A DNA stretch of 63,082 nucleotides, filler included, from Bigelowiella natans CCMP2755 (Eukaryota; Protista; Cercozoa): the NCBI GenBank assembly GCA_000320545.1. It is 5 parts of 5 records of this genome, joined end to end, with 100 filler letters (N's around TTAATTAATTAA, not from the genome) between each part and the next. Parts side by side here need not be neighbours in the genome. Positions count along the whole stretch, not along the records: positions 1 to 28,303 come from ADNK01002402.1; 4 more parts are not named here. One strand, given 5' to 3'. The first letter of the stretch is position 1. Each line of letters begins with the position of its first letter. The notes below the pieces were generated by a model that was not told the origin of the DNA, made no database searches, and saw only the letters and a list, made by a program, of their open reading frames with translations. Positions 4,332 through 55,635 of the stretch are shown one piece after another. Made by a program: the position numbers and the translations under genes.

Positions 4332-5208
4332 TAGCTCTCGTACTAATCTTTGGTGAACGGCATTTTTTCAACTTCACACGCTTTAAAAAATCCTCAAACT
4401 TAAAAAGTCGTCTTTGGATTCCGGATATCAGCTTAGGATAAATTGAGTAAATATTCTCTTCGGGGAATAACGTGGATTCCGATCGGCAAATTTTATATTT
4501 GGCGCGCAAAGGGGGGGGGTTGCTCAGATGGAATATTAAACAAAGAAACACGCCGAAGTAGTTTCAGTTTCTAGAAAAATATCACATATTCTTATAAATT
4601 GTCCTACATTTAACGTGATACTTTTACTTAGGCACTCCAAAAGAAACCTTGGATTGTCTCGTCTTTTCTCGCCTTTTGTGTTATTTCATTAAACTGCCTA
4701 CGTTTGTGTTGAAAAGGAAAAAAGAAATGATAAGGTATTAAAATTCTGGGTAGCATGCTCATTCGGGAATAAAAGGTCTAAAATGCGTTCTTTAATCGAG
4801 AAATGACCATTATTAGGTTCAAAACTAGGGTTTTGTTTCTAGATTTAGAAATATCTTATCTGAAATTCTTAAAGATCTGTTTCAGACTGTTGATTTCTGC
4901 GACATGTCTGAAGCAGTTTCCAAATATACGCTGTATTATTCTAAAAACAAGGAATATGGGAATTTTTGAAACTATTTTGTGATCCTCTTTCAAATTGCCA
5001 TTGATTTTCTGGAGACTCTTTGATCTTAAATAGCTCACTCTGTTTTCGCCAGAAAAGGCATGAAAAAGCGGGAATAAGCTTCACGAGCCCGAGGAGAGAA
5101 GAGAAGGATCCGTTCCCAAAACTCAAAGGAGTCCCAGACAGGCGCGCTTGCCTATTATACTAACGAAAGTAAAGACCCACTCGTTCCCGCCGTTCCAATT
5201 CATCAACC

Positions 5209-7670
5209 ATGGCTGACCGGGTACGTTCTTCCATGTGAAGGCTAGGCTTCTTACGCCCTCGTTTTTGTTTATTCTGGACCGGGTGGGGGGTTCAATAGTT
5301 TTCACATGGTCACTTGAAACTGAATAAGATCTAGTACTCTGCTTCTCCTCCGCGTTTTCAGCACAAAGAATCTTATATTATTCTTTATGCTCTCAGGATC
5401 CAACTCGTCTTGAACTCATCAATGCCAGATTCGACAAGGTCGACTGGTCCTCTCTGGACTCTATTGTCACTACGCTCCCTGCGTACAAGCAAGAGCTCGT
5501 CCGGCTTCAGAAGGAAGGGGTGAAGCAGCCTTCCAAAAAGGTTGAAATTGAGATGTTCAACCTCTGGACGCCATACAAGGACAAGCAGCTTTACAAGCAG
5601 ACGGAGCTTATTCTGGAGCCTCGCAAACGCCATGCGCTTTTTGGACACAACGGATGCGGTAAATCTACCCTGTTCAAAGCCATGGCCGGCGGGACTCTGT
5701 TTGACCAGGGTTTCCCAAAGCACATCTCCGTGCTCCACATGCAGGAGATCGAGACTTCTCCGGACAACGGAACGCTTATGGAAACTGTGATCAACTCTCA
5801 CGAGCTTCTCTACACTCTGCGAAAGTGCCGTGCTACGCTTGAGGAGCTCATCAAGAAGGAGGACAAAGAGGAGTACAAGGAAAACCTTGCATGGGTCAAT
5901 CAGGAGCTTGTTTTCCTGAAGGACGATACTGCTGAGGAGCGCGTTTCGAAGATGCTTAAGCCTCTTGGTTTCGATACCAAGGCTCAGGCTAAGAACGTGA
6001 ACGAGCTTTCCGGAGGTCTTCGTATGCGTGTAGCTCTTGTCTGCGCATTCTTCCAGTCACCTGACCTTCTCCTCCTCGACGAGCCTACCAACCACTTGGA
6101 CTTCCCATCCGTCCTCTGGCTCGAGAACCGCCTTCGTGGTTACTCCGGATCCTTCTTGCTGGTGACCCACGATCGACAGCTCCTCGAGAATGTGTGTAAC
6201 TCCGTTATGCTTATCGAGGAGAAAGAGATCAACTACTACAAGATGGACTTCAAGTCGTTCGAAAAGCGCAAGGCTATCGACGACAAGAAGAAGTACGAGG
6301 AACGGGAGCGCTTCATCGCTCGCAACCGTAACCCGGACCCATCTACTCCTGTTGGTCGCCGCGTGGCAAACTACAAGAAGTGGATTAAGGACTACACCCT
6401 TAACCAGGTTGCTATCGGTGATATGTTCACCTTCCCTGATCCTACCCCACTCCCCGGAGTCGAGGCTGACACTCCTAAGGACCAGATCAAGCTGATCGAC
6501 ATGAAGGATGTCACCTTCGGCTACAAGGGCGCAGATGTGAAGATCTTCAAGAAGGCCACCAACTGCACCATCACCGCTGAGACTCGTATGGGTATTATGG
6601 GACCTAACGGTGCTGGTAAGTCCACTTTCCTCAAGCTCCTGACCGGGCGATTGAACCCTACCACTGGTACCGTCACCACTGCTGAAGGATTCAAGCTTGC
6701 ATATTTCGGCCAGCACTCCGCTGAGGAGCTTCATCTGGAAATGACTCCATTCGAATGGATGGTGCACAAGTACCCAGAGGAAAAGCAGCAAGGAAAGCTC
6801 CGCCATCACCTGAAGAAGGCAGGAATGTCGGGCGAGATGTCCGACACTCGTATGAAGGGCTTCTCCGGTGGACAGAAGGCACGTGTGATCTTTGCACAGC
6901 TGACTTACGTGTGCCCTCACCTCCTTATCATGGACGAGCCTACCAACTTCTTGGACCTCGAGTCCGTGGACTCCCTCATTACCGCTTGTAACAAGTACAA
7001 GGGCGCTATGCTCCTCGTAACGCACTCTCGCCACATGCTTCACTCCTGCGGAAACATTTACCTCTCGATCACCCCTGGCAAGTTCCAGTTCTTCGACAGC
7101 ATCTCGGACTGCGAGCGCGCTACCTACTCCTTCATCAAGGACGTTGAGGAGGGCAACAAGGTGCGCATCGATAAGGTCCAGGGAGGTTCCGGAGAGCAGG
7201 TTGAGGAGGAGGAGGAAGAGGAAGAGTTCACTATGGAGGCTATCATGAAGCGCCGTCAGAAGCACAAGGAGGCTCTTGCTGCTGCTGAGGAGGCTAAGAA
7301 GGCTGCGAAGAAGGCTAAGGAAGAAGAGAAGAAGGCCAAGATTGTCGTCAAGGCACAGAAGGAAGAGTGGAAGGTAGGAGAGACCTGCCTCGCCTTCTGG
7401 TATGAAGACCGCAAGTTCTACAAGGCTAAGGTCCGCCAGGTCTCCAAGAAAAAGCCTGTCAAGGTTTGCTGCACCTTCATGCAGTACGGTAACTCCGTGG
7501 TCCTTGAGCCTGCACAGATTCTTCCTGAGGGCATGGAACCTACCAAGGAAATTCGTCAGTCGGCTTACTACCTTCACGTCGAGCAAACTAAGGCTAAGAA
7601 GGCTGCTGTTGCCGCGAAGAAGGAAAAGATGAAGCAAGATCGCATGAAGAAGCGCCGCCAGCGCCGTTAA
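5209..7670 (+). CDS. ABC-F family translational ATPase with C-terminal Tudor domain; join(5209..5220,5397..7670), about 761 aa
   Basis: Two ABC cassettes and no TM domain: Walker A GHNGCGKST and GPNGAGKST, signatures LSGGL and FSGGQ, Walker B LLLDEPTNHLD and LIMDEPTNFLD, H-loops THD/THS. First exon ATGGCTGACCGG|gtacgt; acceptor tctcag|GATCCA is in frame with ORF 5520. Tudor-like WKVGETCLAFWYEDRKFYKAKV...CTFMQYGNSVVL near the C-terminus. Confidence 0.95.
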
Positions 7671-7958
7671 GCGACTTCTTGCTGTCATTTCCCGTTACTG
7701 CAGATACGAATGGGCAGGGCGAGGATGGTGTCCCATAAGTGCGCTGATGGTTGACAGTGCTACTTTCCTAACGGGAGGCCTCCTTTACCATCGCTCATCT
7801 CCAGCCTGCGTTTCGGAGATGACGGGCTTACTCAATGCATTTATTATAAGTCTTTGAGTAACTAATGAGGTATGCTCCCCCAACTATAGGCTCGGTGCAT
7901 ACTTGAAAACAAGTAAACAATTAACTCCTCCCTGATCACATTAATTCCATAAAATCTC

Positions 7959-8090
7959 CCGGCTCATGGCCGGATTCCTGCTTCTACACCCGATGCAAAG
8001 TCCCATCTCACTGCCTGGCTCATTGCCAGATTCTACAAAACTATTAATCGTCCCAGCCCAGCTGCTGGATTACTCTCGGCTCATGGCCGA
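7959..8090. repeat. Cluster of four short hairpin-forming repeats downstream of ABCF
   Basis: CCGGC-tcatg-GCCGG (7959), CTGGC-tcatt-GCCAG (8015), CCAGC-ccagct-GCTGG (8053), TCGGC-tcatg-GCCGA (8076), each followed by AT(T/A). Confidence 0.7.
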
Positions 8091-8759
8091 ATACACGTCT
8101 TATCTTTTTACTTCTTCGTTCTCGATTTTGTGAGGCGCCTCAATTGGGGTGTCTATATGCACGGACCCAAACCCTCATGGATACCTTCGTTGATCTAAAA
8201 GCCTCGGTCCAAGATGCATCTTTTTGACATGGCAACTCACGTAGATCCAAACTTGCAGAACTATGACAACCAGGATAACGATCGCTATGGGGAAGGGGGT
8301 GTTTGGGGCGTTTAGCAACGCTTCTTTCTCCCAACCTCTCGCGCTGATTCTGGCTGCCTCTGTAATGCCACGATCTACAGATGTGAGACTTCTATGGCAA
8401 TAACTACTACCATCTCATAAATTGCTTTTGAGAGTGATGGAACCGTGACTGATCGGCCATCGCTGGTAATGGCGAATGGGTTTAGACTTTGTGTGAAACT
8501 GATTGCATGAGACATACTCAATGGTGTCAATTGTAAACTTGATCACGTCTTTCGCTGTTCGCGTTGCCGAACATTCTTAAACCAACATGTGTGTGTGTGT
8601 GTGTGTGTGCGCGCGCTGCTTCATTTGAATGATACGCATGTCTCTCCGCAGCAACAAACTTCACCGTACCATGTTGAACCAAACTAGCAAATGACCAATT
8701 CATTTATTGACCGCCGCGCGTAGTGCAAATAATCTTTTACGGATACATCATTTAGGAGA

Positions 8760-11498: not shown

Positions 11499-14400
11499 GC
11501 AGCAGTAGCGACATCAACTGCAGCAACGGCGGTCGGCTGCAACCCCACTTGCGATTAGGAAAAAAAACGGTTTTGGACGAAGACGAATCTGTCGGTGTTT
11601 CAATGGAAAGCGGAGAACCCTAGAGGGCCAACCCTTACGTCTTTAGGCGCAATGATTCCTGTGTATGTGTCGCTTCTCCGCACCTTAATCTGACGTCGGT
11701 TATGTAGCATGTCCCCTTTTGGTTCTCGGGAACGATGAACTCGTAGATACCATTGTTGACCTTTGTCCCTCCAGTCCCCTTCATCGCGGCCTCTCCAAAC
11801 ATCTTATACCTACGAGGAAGAAAATGGAGAGGATGAGAGGGAGGGAGGGGGGAAGATGACGCTTTTTACGTAGCACTTACACACAAACACAAACGCGCGC
11901 GCGCGCGCGGGGAGAGAGAAGAGAAACGAGAGAAAAGAGAGGGAGAGAGAGGGAGAGAGAGAGAGAGATCTCAGTGTTGTTGGCATCATAATAGCATGAC
12001 TTTCCGTCGCCAGAAAACATCTTAGCTTTGGGGTCATCTTCGCCGTCAGCACCGCTCTCCTCCTGCGGATCCAGCTCCTCATCGCTATCGCCATAGTCGC
12101 TATCGTCCCCACACGTAAACACGCTCTCCCAGCAAGATTTGTCATCATCCTTGTGGCGCTTGATGAGGTCGGCGTTTCGGAAGCACATCGCGATAACTTT
12201 CCCTTTCTCAAACCTGATTTTTATGGCCTCCACCGGAGAACTACTGCCTGTAATGTTTCCGTTGGAGTCAGCGCCCAAGGCAAAAATTGCAACGATTGGA
12301 AATGGTAGAAGGGGGGGGGGGGGAAGCGGAACGAACATGGAGACAAGAAGGAGTTGAAGAGGCAATTCTGCTGATTAAGTCACCGATGCTCACCACAAGG
12401 CAGGATTCTCACAAAAAAATCAGCACAAAAATAGAAGACACGCCTCCGCCTGAACATGATCGATCACTGACGTGATTTCAAGTGATGCGAGGGGGGGGGG
12501 GGGGGGCATAAAACAGGCGAGCACGGAGAAACCAATGCGCGAAAAGAATCTAATCGAAATACCAGTGAAGAAGTTCTCAATACTCATTCCTCGGTTGACG
12601 GCGTCCATAGTTGTCAACGACCTGGAGGGGGGAGCGACACGACAACAACGCCGACGTCAAACACAAGCGGTTTGGATTAAAAACGCAGGCATGCGCGGGA
12701 AAAATCGGCGGGTCAAACCGCCATGATTCTCCCACTTTCTACGCACGCAGCAACAACAACGAGAGGCTTCTATTGGTCGCAGCGGTCACGTACCCGCGTC
12801 TCTTGACAGAGCTTCGGCGTCGCCCGAACGAAAACACCTTCCCCTGCTTTTCTTCTATTTGCTTTATTCGATCATACTGCAGGCCCAGATTCACCGAGTA
12901 GCACAGCGTCGAGCTTTGCGACGATTTCTTCTTTCCGAGGAGGTAGGGCCAGAGAGACTCCTGGCGTCTTTTCTTCTGCTTGAGCTCCGGCGTGATTGAA
13001 GGGACCAGCGGAACGATGACCACGGCATAGATGAGGACAACGACGAGGAGGAAGAGGACGTAGGCGAACAAGCCCTGGGTCATCGTGTTGATGGAGAAGA
13101 GCTCCTTCGTCAGGGGAACCACAAAGATTACAATCCCGGCATTTGTCAGGATAGAGATGCAAATGAAGATGGTGAGAACGGAGTTCCAGTTCCCGGAGGA
13201 GTTGGCCGCGTACGGTTGAGGCCTCTGCATGATCGACAGGAGCTTGCTAGAGTCCACGTTCACTTCCACCATGTTGCTCACGAGGGCTAACAGCGGGGAG
13301 AGAGGAAAGAGCGCTGAGAAGAAGGTAACATAACCAAACTGGCGGAAGATCTCCTCGTACTCCTCCAAAACGCCCTCGAATTCAGGGCTTTTATATTGCG
13401 TTGTCAGCACCTTCGAGGCCTTCCTCGCCGCAGCAGCTCGCGCGATTTCCTCCGGAGTGCCCCTTTCCTTACCGGCCTTTTTCTTTCCTTTCCTCCCCTC
13501 GCACTGCTTCAACACCCACGGAACCCCCAGCTCTAGAGTGTTGTCGATGATGATCATACTGATGAACACACCACGCAGGATGTTCCCGGTCGCCTCCGCG
13601 CACGTGACTTCCCCGCAGCCCCCCTCCACAATCGTCTTCAAGAAGGCCGTGTAGTACATGATCCCGAAGTTGATGACGAAGTCGAAGAAGCTGAGCCGCA
13701 GCAGCAGGGCTTGCTCGTAGTCCTGCACAGTCCTCGGGTTCTGATAGTCCGTCAGCCATACCGCCATCGACTTCGTCACGTACCGCGACATGGCGATCAC
13801 GACGGCGAAGACCGTGCCCACGATGGGGGTCCCCTCCAGGTAGCGCTCCACCCACGACGCGGAGGCGATCACGCCGCCGATGAGCAGAAGCGAGAAGGCC
13901 ATGATGACCAGGAGGAAGCACAGGCGCAGCATCTGGCCAGACTCGTCGTAGCTAATGCCCCCATCCACGGCCGAGTACTGCACCACGCCGTGGTACTCCG
14001 GTCGGATCCTGGCCTTCGGCTCGAAGCTAGCACACCCCCAGTGCAGCGCCAGCGCCGCCTCGTTTCGCAGATGGTACTGCCTCCACACAAGAGAGTTCAG
14101 GATGATGATGCAGCAAAACATTATCGTCGCCCCGTCAGGGCTCGCAGCCGTCCTCTGCACAACGAACATGATGACCCCGGACAGCGCTGGTAGTATGAGC
14201 TCCACCTTGGTGTACACGCGGAGAAACTCGAAGTAGAAGGCGATTTTCTGGCCAAAGTACTGCTCGATGAGATCGATCGGTTGCTGCATTGGCCAGACGT
14301 CTCTCCACTTCAATCTCTCCCTCTCTTGCCCCTGCGGCGCGTCCTGCTTCTTTTTCCGGCTGCCGCAGCAGCAGGAGAAGTTGATGAGATTCAGCTCACG

Positions 14401-16110
14401 CTTTATCTGGCGGCGCTTGAACTCGTTGTGGAGCGGAAACGAGCTCTCGAATATCGCTTCGTATTTATCGTCGAGATCCAGCCCGAAAATCGCGTCTTCG
14501 GAGTTGAGGATCTCATCGACGATGTAAAGGATGTCCACTTCTCGAAAGGGCGTGTTAACCCACGAGGCGCCCCTTCGGGCCTGGGTCGGGTATTGCATGT
14601 ACAGAGCTTCGTTGGCCTGGATCTCGTACTGCGAGAAATTGTCTTGCCAAACAGAGTGAGTCTGACCAAAGTGGATTGCCAACTTTAGCCCGAGGTCAAA
14701 ACCTACCACGTGCGACCTTGACGGGTGCAGTCTTAGAATGATTTTTAGAGTCTCCGCCCACCGCCTAATCTCCTGTACAGTTGGCGATATGAGCAGAAAA
14801 AGAACCTTTTTGTCATTGGAAGCGTCTGTCGTGGGCCGTATAAGAATTGCATTCTTGAATGTAGCGTGTAGGTCTTCCAAAAGACTCAGGAGCTGGCGCT
14901 TCCTATTTGCGGATCGCCGCTTTATTTTTATTCTCTCGGGAACGGTCTTGCCTTCCAACTCTTCTTCTTCGTACTGAAATCAAGGCAAGGAAAGTTAACG
15001 ATGACGAAGATGGTAATTATGATGACAATGATGCTAATTGATTGATTCGCTTGACCCATAGTGGTATTGATGTAACTCAAAACAGATAAGGAGGCAACAT
15101 CGATGCCATGCCAATAATTAGCAGGGCACCTTGAAGTCTTTGAGGCAAAGTGCGTAGATGGGCCCATATTGATAATCTGAGATGTCCAGCTCGTCGTTAT
15201 AAAAACTGCTGCTGTCGGAACTCGTATCTGACTTCGTATCCGACTGCGAGTTGAACCCTAATGCAGCCAGCATTTGCATCAGAGAAAAACAACAAACAGC
15301 GGGACCACACCACACAGAAACGGAGTTCAACTTGAAGCAAAACGTCCAAATATACCCTTGTGGAGCAATCTACTATAAATGGAAACTTGGAATATCTACC
15401 TATCGGTCCAATTCTCGTCATGAACCACCCCCCCTCCCATCTTCCAATCCACATTGAGTTTACTACCTTGCTGTTCGGGCTCGTCAGAGGATGTTGTTCT
15501 CCTCCCTTCCGAAACAATCTCCAGTTGATATTTCTTGCTGTCAGATAAAGATGCGGACGATGCTTTTTCCCCTTTGACTGTGGTCCTAATTGACCTTTTA
15601 GTAGAGGAGCCTCTCGATCTTCTCCGGTGGGTGGTTTTTGCTGCCCTTTCATTCTGTTTTCTCTTGGTGCTAGGTTTGCGGGAGGATAACGGGGTATCAC
15701 CTACGGATCGATCGAGCAGCTCGTTCCAATCGTCCAACGCATTCTGGTGTGATGGTCAACTTTAATATTGGGGGTAGCATAAATTTTGACTTTTTCTTTA
15801 CCGCAATATCGTTCATTCGTAGCTAAAATTTTACCTTTGTTTGATCCCCCTCCAGCTTTATTGGTGATTTGAGTCTTTCCTTCTCCCTCTCCTGCTCTTC
15901 CAGGAATATCTCTCGCATTTCAATTTTCTTCTTGCCCTTCTTCTGCTGTCGTCGCTGTGGCCGATGGCTACTCTCATTGTCCTGCTTTCTTCTTTTCTCC
16001 AATTTCCTCACCGAGACTTTAAGATCCTTGTTAAGAAAATTGGCCCAAGCTTTAGTAGCCCTATCTTTTTCAGTCATCTCCAGGCTTTCTTCCCCGGCCC
16101 CCCTCCCCAA
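9991..16110 (-). CDS. Anoctamin/TMEM16 family Ca-activated channel/scramblase, multi-exon, with long N- and C-terminal extensions
   Basis: The large exon (~12794-14973) carries family motifs QPIDLIEQYFGQKIAFYFEFL, LTDYQNPRTVQDYEQALLLRLSFFDFVINF and EEYEEIFRQFGYVTFFSALFPLSPLLALVSNMVEVNVDSSKL. Upstream exons (15130-15255, ~15468-15760, ~15836-16110) and downstream exons down to the stop at 9991 splice in frame (e.g. KRRG|SLTTMDAV, NPALW|FEKGKV, GDGK|YKMFGE). Family call is confident; the termini are less so. Confidence 0.9.
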
Positions 16111-33809: not shown

Positions 33810-34743
33810 TTATTTCCGTGTCGAGAATAGGTCACGAGATTTCCTGCTTGCCATGTCGCGTACTTCTCTCGCCTTTTCGTTTGCCTCGAGCATGTACGCA
33901 TACAGCACGCCGAATGCTACGGTGCTTGCAACCTTTGCAAGATATTGCTTTGTAAAGAAGGAATTACCTGCAGAGACACTGTTCTCAACCTCTGGTACGG
34001 CAGCGGATATGGGGGATGCAGGTTCGCGGGAAGCTGTCGGAATGCGAGCACTCTGAAGAAGCGATTGGCAAATTGGAAGAGTGTGCTTTTCCATGCAATG
34101 GCCAAGAGACTTCACGAATGGGATCGATGCGTATGTTGCTCCAGCAGCTCCTGTAGCAGCGAGGACAGCCAGTCCACGATTCCTAAGCCTACGCTCACTG
34201 GTGTTCTCAACGGCAATCACGGGTGTGGCGATTTTGGCGCTATCCTTAGGCAAGGGTGCGACAGCTGCCGCTCCCGGTCTTGCTGGAATTGCTTCATTGG
34301 GAGCACTGGTGTGGAGGCTTTGTTGAACAAACCAAACGAGGCCTCCGAAGACTACCAAAAGCCAAAGGGCGACCAATACTCTTTTTGTCGTATTTTGAGA
34401 AGCTCTAGCCTGGGTCCTTTTTTCATCAATAATTTTTTGCATCACAGCCCCTAGCTCGAGGTGGAGGAGCCCCATGCTTTGCAGACTCTTCAGATGGAGC
34501 CCGTCCGCGGAGTAGAGGTCAAATTTGTTGTTGCCAGAGCGTGGAAACACCAATTCGGCTTCCTTGCCACTATGTATCTCAAGCATGGTACTGACGTCGA
34601 CCTTCTTTGGAGCAGTAGTTGACTCCGGGCCCCCTTTGCTCTCTTCCTCAGGCTTAGCCACATCGACCAGAAGGGTCTCGCGGCAAGTGTTCTTGATCTT
34701 AATCGAAGTCATGAAGTTGGGGTTTAAAATTTTCCTCGGATAC
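33810..34743 (-). CDS. Hypothetical membrane protein (2-3 hydrophobic segments); upstream exon(s) possible to ~35300
   Basis: Long open frame after acceptor cctgtag|GTATCC with TM-like VLVALWLLVVFGGLVWFV, GLAVLAATGAAGATYASIPFV and VASTVAFGVLYAYML; no family recognised. Confidence 0.55.
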
Positions 34744-36204
34744 CTACAGGCACCATGTGACACGTGTGTAGAGTGACTGAAAGAAATGCGGCAAGAGAAT
34801 AGGTGAATGAAACAAGACGACAAAGTTGTCATGTTTCTTCCGTTGCTCTCTAGAATTTTCCTCCTCAAGCACATGTGCATACATTCGCATCGATTCCGAA
34901 CATAGGGCATAAGGATCTAGGAGACTGAGGGGGGGGGGAGGGGGGGAGCATGGGAGGAAACCGAGTGACCCGGTGTGTGTCCTTCTCACTCACGAGTATT
35001 TCGATGATCCGAAGTGTCAGCCGTCGGCGTACGGTGCTCGTACTCGAATACAAGCCGCGTAGCATGCCATTCCTTCCCTGCGACAAGCAAAAATATGGCA
35101 CGTATCGCGGACGTATTTCGTCGTTCGTCTTTCGCGGTCCTTTTTTGATGTTGCTTGCAGGGGCTTTTCTTCTTCCCTGTTTCCGGGGGTTTGACCGTGA
35201 CAGCCTGTCAGATTTCTTTTTGTTGGTGAGCTGGATCTCATGTGCACTAGATGATACAAGATCTAGAGAGTCGGTCGTCTTACACCCCCAGAAACCACCC
35301 AAAACACAGCACCGAGGATGACACCGAATTTTTTAAAAAAGGGAGGGCGTTTCTGATTGGAATAGGATGTTTTCGGCTGTATTAAGAGGGAGTTTGGCCC
35401 TCAGATAATAACGTGCAGCGATTCGCATACAACGCGCTTGTTTGCAGCCTCCTTCCCCTCCCCCTCCTCCCTTCCACTGCCAAAAAACCGCGGGCTAGGA
35501 CGTTCTGTTTGAAGCCTCAAATGAGCGATAACAACTCCATCCCCTCCATTCCAACCGCCAGGCCATCCCTCATGCGCCAGGCCACCACTGAAGACCCGCA
35601 CCAGCCAAAGGCTACTAAGGTCGCTTTCCGTTGCCGGGATATTCCTGTGTAACAAGATGCGCAGCGCGGAGAGAATGTGCAAGTTCAAAATGACTTTTTT
35701 TTAGTTTGAGAAAACTCAGCCGAACCGTGTTTATCCACGGGTCTCAGAACAAGGACATAAGGTTCTCAGTTTTAATTTCTCACGCTTTTCAGACCTCAGG
35801 AACGTCATCTTCTGAGGGGAAAGACTCAACGCCGAAGAGCGAAAGTATAAACAGCAGCGGAAAATCAACAAATAAAAAGTGAGAATATCTAACGATGTTT
35901 ACGAATTGTACATTCCCACTGGCCAGATACACAGATCAACAATTTATAAGTACTCTTCATTTTCGCGTATAAAGTACTCAAGATCTACAAGGAATGTCTA
36001 GGCTAGCCCTCTCTTTAGCATAGAACATATTTTCCATTTAATTTTGGTTACGTTGTCATTGGCTTCGCGCCGCCAAAAAATGTGGAGATATGGTGGAGTA
36101 CACTAAAATGTATGTGCACATGGGCCTCTATGTTAATGTTCATATACGAACAATTAATAACAATGCAAAACAATAACTGCAAACCTATAAACCCCACATA
36201 TTGC

Positions 36205-38843: not shown

Positions 38844-39633
38844 ATGTCCGCAAGTCGGCAGTGCGTACGCTGTTGTGCCACCAGCAAATCCTCTCTGCGA
38901 GCTTCTTGCAACCCTCGCAAACCTTCTAGAAAGCAGTTGCGACCCAATACGCCATGGAGACAAATCTTAGCGCCTCGTGCCTTCAGAACACCCCTCACAG
39001 GCCTTGGGGCCAAGCGAGGTCACGCGCAGTTCCTCCGCCCCAAGATCATCTACCTTCAGGCTACGCGTCGTGCCCTTAGCGTTGATCAGAGGGACTTCGA
39101 TGATGATTCCAGTCGTCACAACTCTTCAATGGATGAGGGAAGAAGATATCCCCCTCCGGATGACACTGGAGGGGCGTGGCGTGGGCAGGGAGAAGATGGC
39201 GCAGGGGGGCAGACCTCCTCCTCCTCCTCCTCCTCCTCCTCCTCCTCCTCCTCCAGCACGTTTGTTTCACAGTACTTCGAAATGGACCTGATGGAGATCC
39301 AGTCGTACGTCGAGAGGAAGGGTAAGGCCTCTCATTCATCTCCCCCCTCTTCCCATCATCTAGAGAACGTCTCGTTCTGTTCTTTGGCTGCGCGACATTT
39401 CCTTTTTTAAACCGTTGTTTCTGATTTCACTGTCCTGGTGTGAGCGACCACTGTTACAATGCACAGGTTTCGAATATAAAGCCAGCCCAGAGCATATTCG
39501 GTTGTCCGAGTGCCCCTTATGCGATAATCCGCGGCGGGAGCCCTGGAAGTTCTACATATTCCTTAAAGGGGGGAGGTACAAGTGCTACAGCTGCAACCGA
39601 GCTGGAACATGGTACTTGCTTTTGCGCGTGGAA

Positions 39634-39683
<50 letters not shown>

Positions 39684-40513
39684 TTGTATTTATGTACTTC
39701 ATCACAAATGCGTTTGTCTTTAGGTACGACCTGAAGCGTACCCTGGGCGACATATCGAGCGCAATGTCCTTGAGTTCCCGCTACACACACTATCCCCCCC
39801 CACCCTCCGCGGCGAACGGCTTTTTGTCCTCCGCGGGGGGTGCTGCAAGTGGGGGCAGTGCGCCCCTCCATCTTCCAGATCCCAGCGACGCAACACGATA
39901 TCAGGAGAACCTCCACCGCTGCTCGAAGGCCTTGAAGTTCCTCACGGGGAAAAACTCTGATGCTGGGGAAAGGGGCTTGTCCCTTGAAGTGTTGAAGAGG
40001 TACGGCATTGGGTGCGTCACAATCAGGGGGGGTAGCAGCAACAGAGGCCCTCTCGATCTAGGCGACGGTTATCACCATCACCACCACCCTGCCGCCCATC
40101 ATCATCGTCAGGGGGCGGGGGAGGAGGAAGGGGGGGGGAGAGATGTCGAGGCTGCTTCGGAAGAAGAGCTGTTCATCGCCTTCCCGTGGACGGAAAGAGT
40201 GGTTTATGGAGACACAACCGCCTCCTCCTCATCGTCGTCGTCGTCATCATCATCATCATCATCATCGATTCCTCCTCCTCCCTCCTACCGCGTGCTTCGC
40301 TGGAAGCTGCTGCCGTTGAGTCGCGCGCTAAAGGGAGAGCTCGATGGCGGCGTTGGCGGCCTGCAGAGCGCCGACAGGGCGCTCCCCCCCTTGCAATTTG
40401 AGCCCCGAGGAGGCGTGTTCGGGTTCTTCGGGGAGCACACGGTTGACGACGACGCTGAGGAGGTGGTGCTGTGCGAGACGGAATTCGACGCGATGATGGT
40501 CGCTCAGTACACG
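38844..40513 (+). CDS. Twinkle / T7 gp4-like organellar DNA primase(-helicase), N-terminal part, truncated by spacer
   Basis: Arg/Ser-rich presequence; zinc-binding domain ECPLCDNPRREPWKFYIFLKGGRYKCYSCNRAGTW|YDLK; RGLSLEVLKRYGIG; FPW; FEPRGGVFGFFGEHTV; TOPRIM start EVVLCETEFDAMMVAQYT. The helicase domain is not in this contig. Confidence 0.85.
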
Positions 40514-40516
40514 GTG

Positions 40517-40569
<53 letters not shown>

Positions 40570-40613
40570 ATATGTAGTGTGTACGACATATAAGAGAGAG
40601 TAGGGAGGGGGGA

Positions 40614-43032: not shown

Positions 43033-43068
43033 TTTTGAACATTCTTTTTTCCCAGCGCAAGCACAGCT

Positions 43069-45411
43069 ATGTGGAGGTTCGCCGCTCGAAAAAGCCTACC
43101 CCTCCTCCGCCTGGGCGCAACCACGAGCGACCGTCTAGCTAGGCTGCGTGTGCTGCGGAATGACGAGAGGGCGTTTCGAGCGACGATGATGGGAAGCAGC
43201 AACCGGCACCTCCACACCTCTGGCTTTTATCTCCTTCGGCACAACCACCGCAGCCGGCAGAAACAACAGCAGCACATACAATCTTACGAATCCCCCCTAC
43301 CGTTATCTTCTTCAACGGTAGTAGTGTCGTCCATACATTGGGGGCGGATGCTCAGTACCACATCCGCTGGGGACGGCGAGGGGGAGAAGCCATCCACCGC
43401 CAGCAGCAGCAGCACCGACGGCGCCGAGCAGGTTGAGAATGAAAAAAAGAAGGAGCGCCGGCAGTTTGGGAAGAAGGACGCGGCAGACGACGAGGGGGGG
43501 GAGGACGGGAATGCAGGCGGCAAAAAGAAAAAGAAAAGGGTCTTCAAAATGAAACGGACGAGCAGCAGCCCAATAGGAAAGATCATTCGCTACTCGATAT
43601 TCCTCGGTGTGGCAGGGGGGCTCGGCTACTGCATCTACAAGATACGGCAGCCCGAATTCACAATGCCTCTTCTCCTCGAAAACCTCGACCAGAATGGCGT
43701 CTGCTACATCGCCAACGCCTTCTACTACTACCTACAATTCACGGGCGCGGCGCTCGAGTGGCGCGAAGCAATGGCCAATTCTAACGGCGTGGCGCACCTT
43801 ATCAACTACATCAATGGCAACAACACGCCCGAGGCTCAAAGGGTCGGCATGTCGCTCCTGTCGCTTCTGGCCGAGTACGAGAAGACGCGCCCCTATCTCC
43901 GCAACACCACCGTGTTCAAAACGGCTGCGCACTATCTTAACAGCGACGACGTGGAGGTCAAAGGCGCGTCGCTGAACGTTCTCATCTACATGTTCCAGGA
44001 CAAGCCGTCGGCCACGCTCGTCGTTGATAGCGGCGTGCTGAAGCTGATGTGCAACATCGCCGCCAAGGCCTTCAAGGAGGGCCCGGAGCGTTTCGCGGGG
44101 GAGCTCGCTTTGCAGGCGATCAGTAAGATTCCCAACAACTACCCGGGGGGGGCGAGGGCTCTGATGAAGAAGGGCCTCGACGAGCAGCAGCTAAACTGCA
44201 TCTTCGCGGCCATGCACTCCGATCTGATCCAGCTAGAGAGGCAGGGGGACTTCGATAAGGCGCTCAAGGTCGCTTCCGAGTGCATTGCAATGAACCCGCA
44301 GGCGCCCGAATTCTACCAGATCTCAGCCCGCATCCAGTCCTCCCAAGGCAACCTTGAAGGCGCGATTTGGAACATGAAGAAGGCCGTGAAGTTCGGGCAC
44401 AAGGAGCCCCAGCACAAGACCTTCCTCGTGCAGCTGCTGTTAGAGAGCGGCCGGCCGAAGTACCTCCAGGATGCAAGAGACCTGCTAAACAAGCTAGTGA
44501 ACGATCAAACCGCGCTCGGCAAGCTCAGCAGCGGCCAGCAGATGATGGACGACGACGCAGCGGTGGGGGGGATCGCCGTGCACAGGGACGAGAAGATGGA
44601 GAACCTGAGCAAGGAGATCCGCGTCTCGCAGATGTACATGCAAATGGTGAAGGCCGACCTCATGCTGCGAGACTATAGAAGTGCATCCGGGCACGTGCAC
44701 GAATGGCTAAAGCGGTCTCCCAATTCGGCGCCCGCGCTCTACTCGAAGGCCAAGGTTCTGTCGCACAGGCAGCGCTACCCGGAGGCGCTCACGGCTGTCA
44801 ACGAGTCGCTGGGCATCAACCCCCAGCGGCCAGAGTCGCTGTACCTTCGCGCGTTCCTCTTGTACAAGCTCGGGAAGGCCGACGAGTCTCTGGACGTGTG
44901 CCATAAGGTTGTGCGGCTGCTGCGCCGAGACGTCACCCGCGGGGAGAGGGTTCCCAACCTACACCTCCTCATGGGGAAGATATACGAGGGCAAAGAGCAG
45001 TTCTCCAAAGCAGAACACAGCTACGAAATGCTAGTGAAGGCCGACCCGTCGCGCCCCATGCCCCACTTCCGCCGAGGCCGCGCCCTCCTCAAGGCGGGGC
45101 AGGAGGGGAAGGCCAATAGCGAGTTCGGCGAGGTTCTCAGACTGTGGAGCGACGTGTGTATAGAAAGAAAATCCTGCAAGAACTACTTCTACCGTAACCA
45201 GGCCGCCGCGAACGCGATGAAATTCATCGGGCAAAGATGCAACGGAGTTGAGTGTAGGATACCGCAGAAGGCTGTTGTAGTAGAGACGAAAACCGAGGGA
45301 GGGACGGCAGGCTCCCAGCAGCCGCCAAGTCCGCCTCGGCAGATGATATCGGGGGAGTTGGACATCAAAGACATGTGCGGAATGTACGCACGGTTGAAGT
45401 CGGCAGATTAA
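43069..45411 (+). CDS. Intronless, probably mitochondrion-targeted single-TM protein with ARM-like and TPR repeats (780 aa)
   Basis: Arg-rich acid-poor presequence MWRFAARKSLPLLRL; TM IIRYSIFLGVAGGLGYCIY; ARM-like helices (GVAHLINYI, VDSGVLKLMCNIA); TPR-like repeats (DFDKALKVASECIAMNPQAPEFY, RYPEALTAVNESLGINPQRPESLYLRAFLLYKLGKADES, FSKAEHSYEMLVKADPSRPMPHFRRGRAL); strong GC3 coding bias. Confidence 0.85.
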   Translation: MWRFAARKSLPLLRLGATTSDRLARLRVLRNDERAFRATMMGSSNRHLHTSGFYLLRHNHRSRQKQQQHIQSYESPLPLSSSTVVVSSIHWGRMLSTTSAGDGEGEKPSTASSSSTDGAEQVENEKKKERRQFGKKDAADDEGGEDGNAGGKKKKKRVFKMKRTSSSPIGKIIRYSIFLGVAGGLGYCIYKIRQPEFTMPLLLENLDQNGVCYIANAFYYYLQFTGAALEWREAMANSNGVAHLINYINGNNTPEAQRVGMSLLSLLAEYEKTRPYLRNTTVFKTAAHYLNSDDVEVKGASLNVLIYMFQDKPSATLVVDSGVLKLMCNIAAKAFKEGPERFAGELALQAISKIPNNYPGGARALMKKGLDEQQLNCIFAAMHSDLIQLERQGDFDKALKVASECIAMNPQAPEFYQISARIQSSQGNLEGAIWNMKKAVKFGHKEPQHKTFLVQLLLESGRPKYLQDARDLLNKLVNDQTALGKLSSGQQMMDDDAAVGGIAVHRDEKMENLSKEIRVSQMYMQMVKADLMLRDYRSASGHVHEWLKRSPNSAPALYSKAKVLSHRQRYPEALTAVNESLGINPQRPESLYLRAFLLYKLGKADESLDVCHKVVRLLRRDVTRGERVPNLHLLMGKIYEGKEQFSKAEHSYEMLVKADPSRPMPHFRRGRALLKAGQEGKANSEFGEVLRLWSDVCIERKSCKNYFYRNQAAANAMKFIGQRCNGVECRIPQKAVVVETKTEGGTAGSQQPPSPPRQMISGELDIKDMCGMYARLKSAD

Positions 45412-53590: not shown

Positions 53591-54551
53591 AGTATCTCGT
53601 AAGAATAGGAAGGAGAACGACTTCCAAAATGAGTTTTTTTTCGGAATAATGTGCTTTATTAGATAAATGTGTGCTATATTTTATCCCCAAAAATAATAAA
53701 AATAAGTAAAAATATTTATAAAAAGTCTTAATTTGCTTGCTGATTTAGATATCCCTTGGTCCAGCCTGTGTTCCTTAATTAACCTATAACTTAGAATACC
53801 GACATGAGTTATCTGTTGTCGTAAGATATAACAACGCGATAAACGAACATCGAGCCGAATTTTGAAACATGGAGTCTACAACCGCTACCGGTCGGGCTTT
53901 TTATATCTATATATAGCAAAAAGTAATTCATTTCCGCTGAAATTACATGCGTTTTTAGTAACTTTACTCTTAAAATCCTCTTTCAGATGTTCCTCGGACA
54001 AAAACTAGTCGGATTCAGCCGAATGGGGAAGACGAAACTGAAAGGATAAATAAATCAATCGCAAAAAGAACGATTTATCGGCAAAACTTCCACTAAAAAA
54101 GTTCTGCGAATTCATTTCGATGATAACAGCAATTATCAATATAGCGATTTGACAAATTAGTATTTAAAACTACAAATAACGTGTGTTTTTATTACTTTTT
54201 TAATATTTGGGGATGTCGTTTATTTAAATCCAATTATTAACAAAATGTTTATAAATTTAAATAAATTTTAGTTATTCTGAATATCCGGAGCGAAGTCGAA
54301 CGATCGAGTGCAGAGAGTGGCAGCGAAAGAATCATGGGGGGGACAGCAGGTCCAAGCTTCCAGCATTGAATAAGTTTTAATGAGCGTTTTCGAAGCCTAC
54401 TCTTTCTGCACCCCATCAACGAATAATACACGTGATATTGCCCCAATGAAGGACGATGAATCGTCGGCTCTTTCTCACTTTCTCACAACTATTTTCATTT
54501 TATTCAGGAACAAGGTAGAGCTGCATCGAAGGCCCACAACTTCGTGTATAA

Positions 54552-55635
54552 ATGCCCAACAGCATTCCGCCCCCCCTGCCTAAATCACGCCCGCCGTCTT
54601 TCCCTTCGGCTCCGCCCCCCCCACTACCGGCGAAGGAAAGGAACAAGGAGGAATGGCAGCATTCAACCCCGCAAGAGACGCCGGACACTTCGTCCTCTAA
54701 ACCCACGAAGTCTATCAACCGGATTGAAAGCAAAATCGTCAATTCTAGTACCGGTCATCCGAACGCGCCGCGGACCTCCTCGTGTCCGTCGCCTACCCCC
54801 CCCCCCCCTCCCCCCAAAGCTACCAGGTAGGCCGCCAGGGAAACGCGCGCAAGACAGCGTCAGATCACACCATGCTAAAAGTCTCAACGACATCAAAAAA
54901 CCTCCACAGCTCCCATCCTCCAGGCCACCCAAAAAGCCCTCGAGAAAGCACCGAGACTCCCCTGCTACCACCACTCCTACTCCTCCTTCCTCCTCTCCGA
55001 GCACCTCGTCGTCGTCATCACCACCACCCCTACCGTCGATCTCCAAAACACGCTCATTAGACACATCGATAGACCCGTGTACCGAGGACGAAGCCCCTCC
55101 TCCCCTCCCCCCCAAATCTCCGCGTGTGCCTACACCTCCAAAGGCAGCAAAATGTGAAAAGACTGATACCATCGCCCTCCCTCACAAACCTGCTGCAGAT
55201 ACGCTGTCAATAGAGCCAAGAGCGACATCAGCCCTTCCGCGATCTATGCCCCCCCCTCTCCCGCCGCCTCTTTCCCCCGAGCCTTCCCACTCGAAAGGCA
55301 ACGAAACCGCCATAGCCTAGACAGTCTACATAACACTACCACGCTTGCCCTATTCTGTCGGGCTGATGATACGCGTGCTTCTTCTGCGTGATTATTCATT
55401 CTGTTAGATGCCACCAAGCCAGCGGTACAGCAATTAGCCCCTGCCCCCGCGCATCCTAAGGAAGTCGCGACCTCTTCTTCGGGGAGGAAAGCAGTGCAGC
55501 TCAGCTCGACGAATCCCTTCGCTGCCAGCGGTGATGAACCCCCGCAGGAAGGATAATTATCCGACTAAAATGTGATTTGGCCTTTGTCTTGGGACATCGT
55601 CTGTATTGCTGATTGCAAGCACATAGAAATATGTA

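Follow-up and report, generated by a model that had tools for sequence, protein, structure and literature searches.

Whether an ATPase of the ABCF type has acquired a domain that reads methyl marks on the translation apparatus is the question raised by a gene of Bigelowiella natans CCMP2755 (GCA_000320545.1). An earlier note on this locus had described an ABCF protein fused to an SMN-type Tudor domain and had proposed that it acts as a methylation-gated translation factor. Ribosomal proteins and translation factors are methylated, and few direct methyl readers are known to act on the ribosome. The gene occupies positions 5209..7670 (+) of the window, by which is meant the whole 63,082-nucleotide stretch of DNA analyzed (filler included), and lies within the part derived from ADNK01002402.1. 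The fusion, its conservation, the state of its ATP sites and its possible role are considered in turn below.

Gene structure and transcription

The 761-residue translation of the two exons is identical to P0234, which is labelled in the database as a Bigelowiella natans gene model and transcript. Both ABC cassettes and the Tudor domain share one long frame in the second exon, while exon 1 is covered by RNA contigs from about 5127-5140 and the intervening intron is spliced out in contigs from all four RNA or presumed-RNA runs. In three of these runs, a single contig extends from exon 1 through the Tudor domain and beyond the stop codon; in the fourth, the gene is covered by overlapping contigs. 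Codon use is alike in the core and in the Tudor domain, both at third positions (GC3 of 0.67 and 0.70, respectively) and in the choice of lysine codons (AAG:AAA of 45:6 and 7:1). The match to P0234, the junction-spanning RNA contigs and the unchanged codon use therefore indicate that the Tudor fusion is not an artefact of assembly or splicing. The in-frame translation of 7362-7526 agrees with the earlier description of a domain that lies in the same exon and has the same codon bias as the core.

The RNA contigs continue for at least 530 bases 3' of the stop codon (window 7670-8200 and beyond), so the transcript has a long 3' untranslated region. Five other long frames occur in the window, at 12739-14979 (-), 43039-45411 (+), 33810-34916 (-), 39425-40603 (+) and 54460-55320 (+), and comprise an anoctamin, a TPR-repeat protein and three products without a Pfam match. 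Examination of these window frames with Pfam provided no link between the neighboring anoctamin and TPR-protein frames and the ABCF-Tudor gene.

Table 1. Features of the ABCF-Tudor gene, in window positions
Feature	Position	Strand	Evidence
Coding part of exon 1 (residues 1-4)	5209..5220	+	Identical to residues 1-4 of P0234
Intron, 176 bases, GT..AG	5221..5396	+	Absent from contigs of 4/4 runs; ends read directly
Coding part of exon 2 (residues 5-761 and stop; 2274 bases)	5397..7670	+	Identical to residues 5-761 of P0234
Short family-specific helical N-terminal domain (residues about 8-50)	5406..5534	+	Three helices, pLDDT above 90
ABC cassette 1, including helical arm (5775-5915, residues 131-177)	5541..6239	+	Pfam ABC_tran; model
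Helical inter-cassette linker hairpin	6249..6419	+	Model helices 289-313 and 322-345
ABC cassette 2, no chromodomain insert	6489..7094	+	Pfam ABC_tran; continuous alignment to ABCF1
Near-invariant strand and helix closing cassette 2 (residues 560-590)	7062..7154	+	Conservation
Tether: Gly-rich low-confidence stretch, poly-Glu run, Lys/Ala helix	7155..7361	+	Model
SMN/SPF30/TDRD3-type Tudor domain	7362..7532	+	Pfam, PDB sequence matches, AlphaFold model, Foldseek, VIA-align
Tudor cage: W672, Y679, F698, Y701, N703	7398, 7419, 7476, 7485, 7491	+	Alignment
V705 in place of the E134-type glutamate	7497	+	Alignment
C-terminal basic helix (helix 721-760)	7533..7667	+	Model

Architecture of the encoded protein

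The protein is a genuine ABCF, with two cassettes, an arm, a linker and no membrane domain, for which ribosome binding and ATP hydrolysis are predicted from sequence and model (Table 1). A PDB sequence search with the core placed ABCF1, YheS and Arb1 on top, human ABCF1 being the best match (E 1.4e-76) as well as the best in the fold search (TM by target 0.83). All top NCBIfam matches are ABC-F models, and no membrane family occurs among the 25 of 31 Pfam matches listed for the query. In the all-soluble full-length model (pLDDT 86, pTM 0.72), the N-terminal helices are followed by cassette 1 with its arm, the linker hairpin, cassette 2, the tether, the Tudor domain and the basic helix. All ATP motifs are canonical at both catalytic sites, including the Walker A, Q-loop, Walker B and H-loop of cassette 1, which are often degenerate in relatives.

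Several parts of the chain appear to be peculiar to the family. The N-terminal domain of about 45 residues has no Pfam match, and its D20, W21, P32 and Y34 stand at 0.76-0.99 weighted conservation. The dimensions of linker and arm are ordinary (spacings of 166 and 114 against outgroup medians of 168 and 112), while the linker sequence is family-specific, with N316, D318, W333, F348 and F350 at 0.91-1.00 conservation within the family. PF12848 was matched by the outgroup ABCFs scanned but is absent from the listed Pfam matches of the query and of the family members scanned (the best five per protein in one of the scans), and the contact with tRNA may therefore differ. In the segment closing cassette 2, S561, P564, G565, E577, T580, Y581 and F583 are at 1.00 weighted conservation. 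The tether varies from 39 to 99 residues across the family; in the query, its pLDDT falls under 50 at residues 592-615 before a helix at 617-649. The poly-Glu run, the Lys/Ala spacer and the basic tail are all present as previously described. A C-terminal basic helix is seen in the chlorarachniophyte-like branch, and the tails of other members are of Ala/Pro/Lys or RGG type.

The Tudor domain and its aromatic cage

Against the Pfam SMN_Tudor model (cut-off 22.7 bits), the whole protein scores 25.7 bits and the isolated domain 30.8 bits. SPF30 (E 1.2e-7), TDRD3 and SMN are the top matches both in a PDB sequence search with the domain and in a Foldseek search with its AlphaFold model, a five-stranded barrel (74 aligned sequences) with a core pLDDT of about 90. 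In a VIA-align comparison that covered the Foldseek matches, the model superposes on TDRD3 8jtn with a Z of 10.4 and an rmsd of 1.5 Å and on SMN 7w30 with a Z of 9.8 and an rmsd of 1.1 Å (57 aligned residues in each case), followed by other Royal-family domains at a Z of about 9. The assignment of an SMN/SPF30/TDRD3 Tudor to 7362-7526 in the earlier note is thus confirmed, as to both the peptide encoded there and the fold on which it had suggested a check by modelling.

In sequence alignment, W672, Y679, F698, Y701 and N703 correspond to Y566, Y573, F591, Y594 and N596, the residues of the TDRD3 cage (PMC3281842). The query cage, called by this alignment, accordingly retains four aromatics and the Asn, as the earlier note had claimed. 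What the note overlooked is that the residue two after the cage Asn is Val705, compared with a glutamate in SMN (E134) and TDRD3 (E691), whose change to lysine abolishes the binding of sDMA peptides by both proteins (PMC2536506). The net charge of the query Tudor is +6.

These properties extend across the family. The set comprised 160 first Tudors, of which 159 were detected by profile and one, a decayed copy, was included manually. Of these, 158 keep the four cage aromatics and 137 keep all four plus the Asn, a count that is partly circular because the profile used for detection derives from members with a cage. Aromatic residues have a weighted frequency of 0.97-0.98 at cage positions, compared with 0.16 at F671 and 0.08 at Y673 beside them. 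Ala and Val predominate at position 705, which is Glu in 3 of the 160; the net charge is positive in 155, K677, K685 and K693 are at 0.61-0.72 weighted conservation, and D675, adjoining the cage, is Asp in 156. Tandem Tudors occur in P0082, P0086, P0102 and P0242, where the second copy lacks the cage Trp, the last Tyr and the Asn. The second copies in all four tandem proteins, and likewise P0407, have kept the domain and lost the cage, so the Tudor fold does not demand the cage. From its sequence, the Tudor likely has a methylated or aromatic ligand, and methyl reading by it is plausible. The methyl-reader proposal of the earlier note is therefore upheld as to the pocket, which is intact and conserved in the family, while an RG-rich mRNP tail as its ligand is doubtful given the scarcity of Glu at position 705 and the basic character of the domain.

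A distinct clade of protist ABCFs

The first search retained the best 120 of 7715 matches, among which those carrying a name (classified by us from the names) are all chlorarachniophytes and the rest lie mostly on 2-3 kb contigs; a Tudor is present in 118 of these 121 proteins, the query counted. Among representatives at 50% identity, about 20 clusters at 43-85% identity to the query are followed by ordinary ABCFs at 30-41%. In the pooled set of 333 proteins, 207 reach 1.27 bits per column or more against a family core profile and are taken as the family; no other protein exceeds 0.88. Three trees (quick searches of representatives, with SH-aLRT support and no bootstrap) place all family rows (36/36, 41/41 and 12/12) on one side of a long-stemmed branch with an SH-aLRT of 100. 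The ABCF phylogeny suggested as a check in the earlier note thus assigns the query to a distinct clade. A sister relationship to eEF3-like rows has an SH-aLRT of 94 in the 41-row tree, is absent from the 36-row tree and is not resolved in the 12-row tree; placement beside these rows is inconsistent, and the tree cited for it is a quick mixture-model one. The sample is dominated by one abundant sub-branch and amounts to about 62 effective sequences.

Among the 198 members with a complete second cassette, 159 carry the Tudor and 39 lack it, the latter including at least three that are apparently truncated or frameshifted, two with a decayed Tudor and three near-duplicate pairs. The distribution needs four changes on one tree and six on another. 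The deepest split in the family has Tudor-bearing members on either side, so that one gain followed by repeated losses would be the simplest reading. A Tudor-less paralog is present in B. natans and Amorphochlora, and chlorarachniophytes apparently have three paralog types (P0240, P0245 and P0008-P0017): one with both ATP sites canonical and a Tudor, one with the first catalytic Glu changed to Asp and a Tudor, and one without Tudor. In P0443, a CCCH zinc finger occupies the place of the Tudor, at 24.4 bits just below its cut-off of 24.6. RGG tails are found in 8/30 members without an intact Tudor and in 1/159 with one (Fisher p 1e-6); a mutual exclusion of RGG tail and Tudor was dropped as a candidate after a tree-aware test (3 independent pairs, p 1).

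The ABCF-Tudor branch is carried by chlorarachniophyte algae and likely by many other microbial eukaryotes, and its members likely bind the ribosome; as a guess, the large group at 44-54% identity represents other Cercozoa. No family member was detected in viral contigs (55 loci, best 35% identity), metagenome contigs likewise reached 35% identity at best (1/64 parts scanned, with generic patterns), and the Atlas searches yielded nothing beyond generic ABCFs. One viral contig, 357 kb long, encodes an ordinary ABCF of 568 residues (L001:3001-4599), unlike the other three translated viral loci, which are of the eEF3-like kind.

Asymmetry of the ATP sites

An asymmetry that the earlier note did not mention emerges from the 182 members with a full core. 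Essentially no variation occurs in the Walker A and Walker B of cassette 2 or in the cassette 1 signature (182/182), whereas the opposite ATP site is off consensus in 171 of the 182: there, the signature of cassette 2 is SGG in 33, most Q-loops have Lys and Asp replaces the catalytic Glu in 14. Both ATP sites are whole in the remaining 11, which belong exclusively to the branch of the query. Since most members have a degenerate first site, catalysis is likely to fall to the second, which is invariant.

Prior descriptions

The reference survey of Murina et al. (2019) defines 15 eukaryotic ABCF subfamilies, and the word Tudor is absent from its main text (PMC6723617). In its supplement, the taxonomy table and the sequence rows to 6406 contain no Bigelowiella, Plasmodiophora, Reticulomyxa, Rhizaria, Cercozoa or chlorarachniophyte, and two family motifs do not occur in the first 400 letters of each of those rows (PMC6723617). 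A full-text literature search that included few subscription papers returned no published account of an ABCF with a C-terminal Tudor among the papers listed, and the portions covered of PMC10927497, PMC11378755, 10.1101/2021.11.30.470311 and 10.64898/2026.09.19.752920 contain nothing on such a fusion. Within that coverage, the view that the architecture had gone undescribed holds. The family is a real, conserved and apparently undescribed ABCF subfamily, combining a reader-type Tudor domain with half-site degeneracy, and it adds to the ABCFs a subfamily from a lineage not listed, by the names searched, in the reference survey (PMC6723617).

Proposed function and alternative explanations

The interpretation favored here, to which we would give an even chance, is that of a transcribed ABCF of a protist clade whose core likely acts at the ribosomal E site, by analogy with other arm-and-linker ABCFs, and whose Tudor, with its predicted methyl-binding pocket, would be an accessory tether rather than a gate. 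In bacterial-type ABCFs, the arm binds the L1 stalk and the linker is the P-site tRNA motif (PMC6723617). By comparison with EttA/Arb1-type ABCFs, the arm of the query may contact the L1 stalk, its linker hairpin may reach the P-site tRNA and ATP hydrolysis, powered for the most part by the second site, may release the factor. Judged from its cage, the Tudor pocket would hold dimethyl-arginine or a low-methyl lysine, and SMN-type pockets can also accept methyl-lysine (PMC9993015). The basic charge of the domain and its missing E134-type glutamate make it likely that the methylated residue lies in surroundings that are acidic or rich in RNA, for instance on a ribosomal protein or a bound factor, rather than in a free RG-repeat tail. 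One candidate ligand, as a guess, would be the L1-stalk protein uL1 in its lysine-methylated form; the yeast protein carries methylation on a single lysine (PMC7957392). As a precedent, TDRD3 co-sediments with polysomes, and its Tudor binds eEF1A1 and DDX3 (PMC2536506). A tethered Tudor would raise or direct binding, adding affinity or selectivity rather than gating catalysis, and such an accessory role fits a domain that has variously been lost, duplicated or, in P0443, replaced by a CCCH finger. A stronger formulation, in which a translation ATPase with one active ATP site reads a methyl mark on the ribosome or a bound factor, such as a methylated protein of the L1 stalk or the small subunit, and acts only on marked ribosomes, is somewhat doubtful; if true, methylation of ribosomal proteins would be coupled by a direct reader to an E-site motor across a protist lineage.

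The same pocket and charge can be read differently. The Tudor may instead be an RNA-binding module whose basic surface binds rRNA, tRNA or mRNA and whose cage stacks on a plain or methylated base, a possibility that Royal-family domains able to bind m6A RNA illustrate (PMC6812964). The positive charge of 155/160 domains, the three conserved lysines and the missing E134-type glutamate would suit it, as would the RNA-type modules of Tudor-less members (CCCH in P0443, RGG tails in 8/30 against 1/159). However, the RGG pattern fails the tree-aware test, the residue beside the cage is an Asp in nearly all domains (156/160), and the cage with its Asn matches methyl-arginine readers, which are also the closest structural matches; on balance, we consider an RNA module rather doubtful. 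For the accessory methyl-binding tether, in turn, the eEF3 chromodomain is a caution, although it lacks the pocket: an ABCF can evidently use a Royal-family barrel through its charge and not through methyl reading (PMC7957392). A Tudor that is a functionless passenger, or a fusion created by an assembly or gene-model error, is very improbable: the domain has been lost or decayed in several lineages, but single RNA contigs span the junction and exclude an artefact, 118 of the 121 first-search proteins carry the Tudor, and its cage positions are far more conserved than their neighbors at 45-50% core identity.

Strict gating, in which the ATPase acts only upon binding a methyl mark and methylation thereby controls translation, was the claim of the earlier note. 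It can draw on a cage that is near-invariant wherever a first Tudor is present, on the occurrence of the Tudor on both sides of the deepest split and on separate ABCF3-like proteins whose N-terminal part contains a Tudor, suggestive of repeated selection for the pairing. Nevertheless, 39 of 198 members with a conserved core, the B. natans paralog among them, lack the Tudor, its presence changes four to six times on the trees, and the tether, at 39-99 residues, is long and of variable length, with low model confidence over part of it, so no allosteric path from the Tudor is evident. Gating is consequently unlikely, and this part of the earlier proposal is not sustained. Equally, there is a slim prospect that the protein works mainly away from translating ribosomes, in subunit maturation or RNP granules, with the Tudor recruiting it to methylated RNP proteins. 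ABCF2/Arb1 has a role in ribosome assembly (PMC6723617), the TDRD3 Tudor suffices for stress-granule recruitment (PMC2536506), and both the N-terminal domain and the linker sequence are particular to the family; yet the arm and hairpin are of ordinary dimensions, and a basic Tudor is a poor fit to the RG-rich ligands by which recruitment to granules is driven. The family joins an intact pocket to an ABCF and offers natural controls, since its paralogs include some with both ATP sites, some with one site altered and some with no Tudor; the reading of ribosome methylation by a translation motor is thus directly testable.

Comparison with known systems

The Tudors of SMN, SPF30/SMNDC1 and TDRD3 share with the query the five-stranded barrel, 29-35% identity and a cage of four aromatics plus Asn. 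The query domain differs from them in the absence of the E134/E691-type glutamate, in its net basic charge and in its location on an ATPase rather than an RNP scaffold. Tudors also occur elsewhere among ABCFs: P0258, P0259, P0278 and P0282 are ABCF3-like, carry the domain inside their N-terminal region and keep the E134-type glutamate. These four proteins fall outside the query family and do not group together in the tree, and a search with one such protein found a single close relative among 17 matches, suggesting that the N-terminal pairing is sporadic.

ABCF1/ABC50, ABCF2/Arb1 and ABCF3/Gcn20 resemble the query in having two cassettes, an arm, a helical linker of equal length and charged terminal extensions, with no transmembrane part, HEAT domain or chromodomain; structural identity to ABCF1 is 31%. 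In contrast to ABCF1-3, the query family forms a separate long-stemmed clade with a linker that does not match PF12848, its own 45-residue N-terminal domain, a C-terminal Tudor and a first ATP site degenerate in 171/182 members. The query is placed outside ABCF3/Gcn20: it does not fall in the branch of the yeast proteins P0480 and P0486, which are presumably Gcn20 orthologues, and its N-terminal domain of about 45 residues contrasts with the long Gcn1-binding one of that subfamily. ABCF4, a catch-all group of algal and amoebal ABCFs (Murina et al.), likewise comprises protist proteins not assignable to ABCF1-3 and, like the query family, may be allied to the eEF3 side of the tree. It was described with an ABCF3-like N-terminal domain, and three of its supplement rows lack the hallmark motifs of the query family, having only ABC1, ABC2, arm and linker (PMC6723617).

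eEF3, New1 and eEF3L offer a parallel for a Royal-family barrel on an ABCF with a basic C-terminal tail. Where readable, eEF3-like rows share two cassette 2 motifs with the query family, namely an aromatic residue after the Walker B Asn and an H-loop His with no Asp after it. Two 1300-residue proteins with four ABC cassettes (P0246, labelled Polykrikos kofoidii, and P0247) combine an eEF3-like pair with its insert and an ordinary ABCF pair. Unlike eEF3, New1 and eEF3L, the query has no HEAT domain, for which there is no room, and possesses an arm; its barrel, a Tudor, follows cassette 2 on a tether, whereas theirs is a chromodomain within that cassette. In eEF3, the chromodomain once prompted the idea of methyl reading and proved to lack an aromatic pocket, and hence the means to read uL1 methylation (PMC7957392), whereas in the query that pocket is kept.
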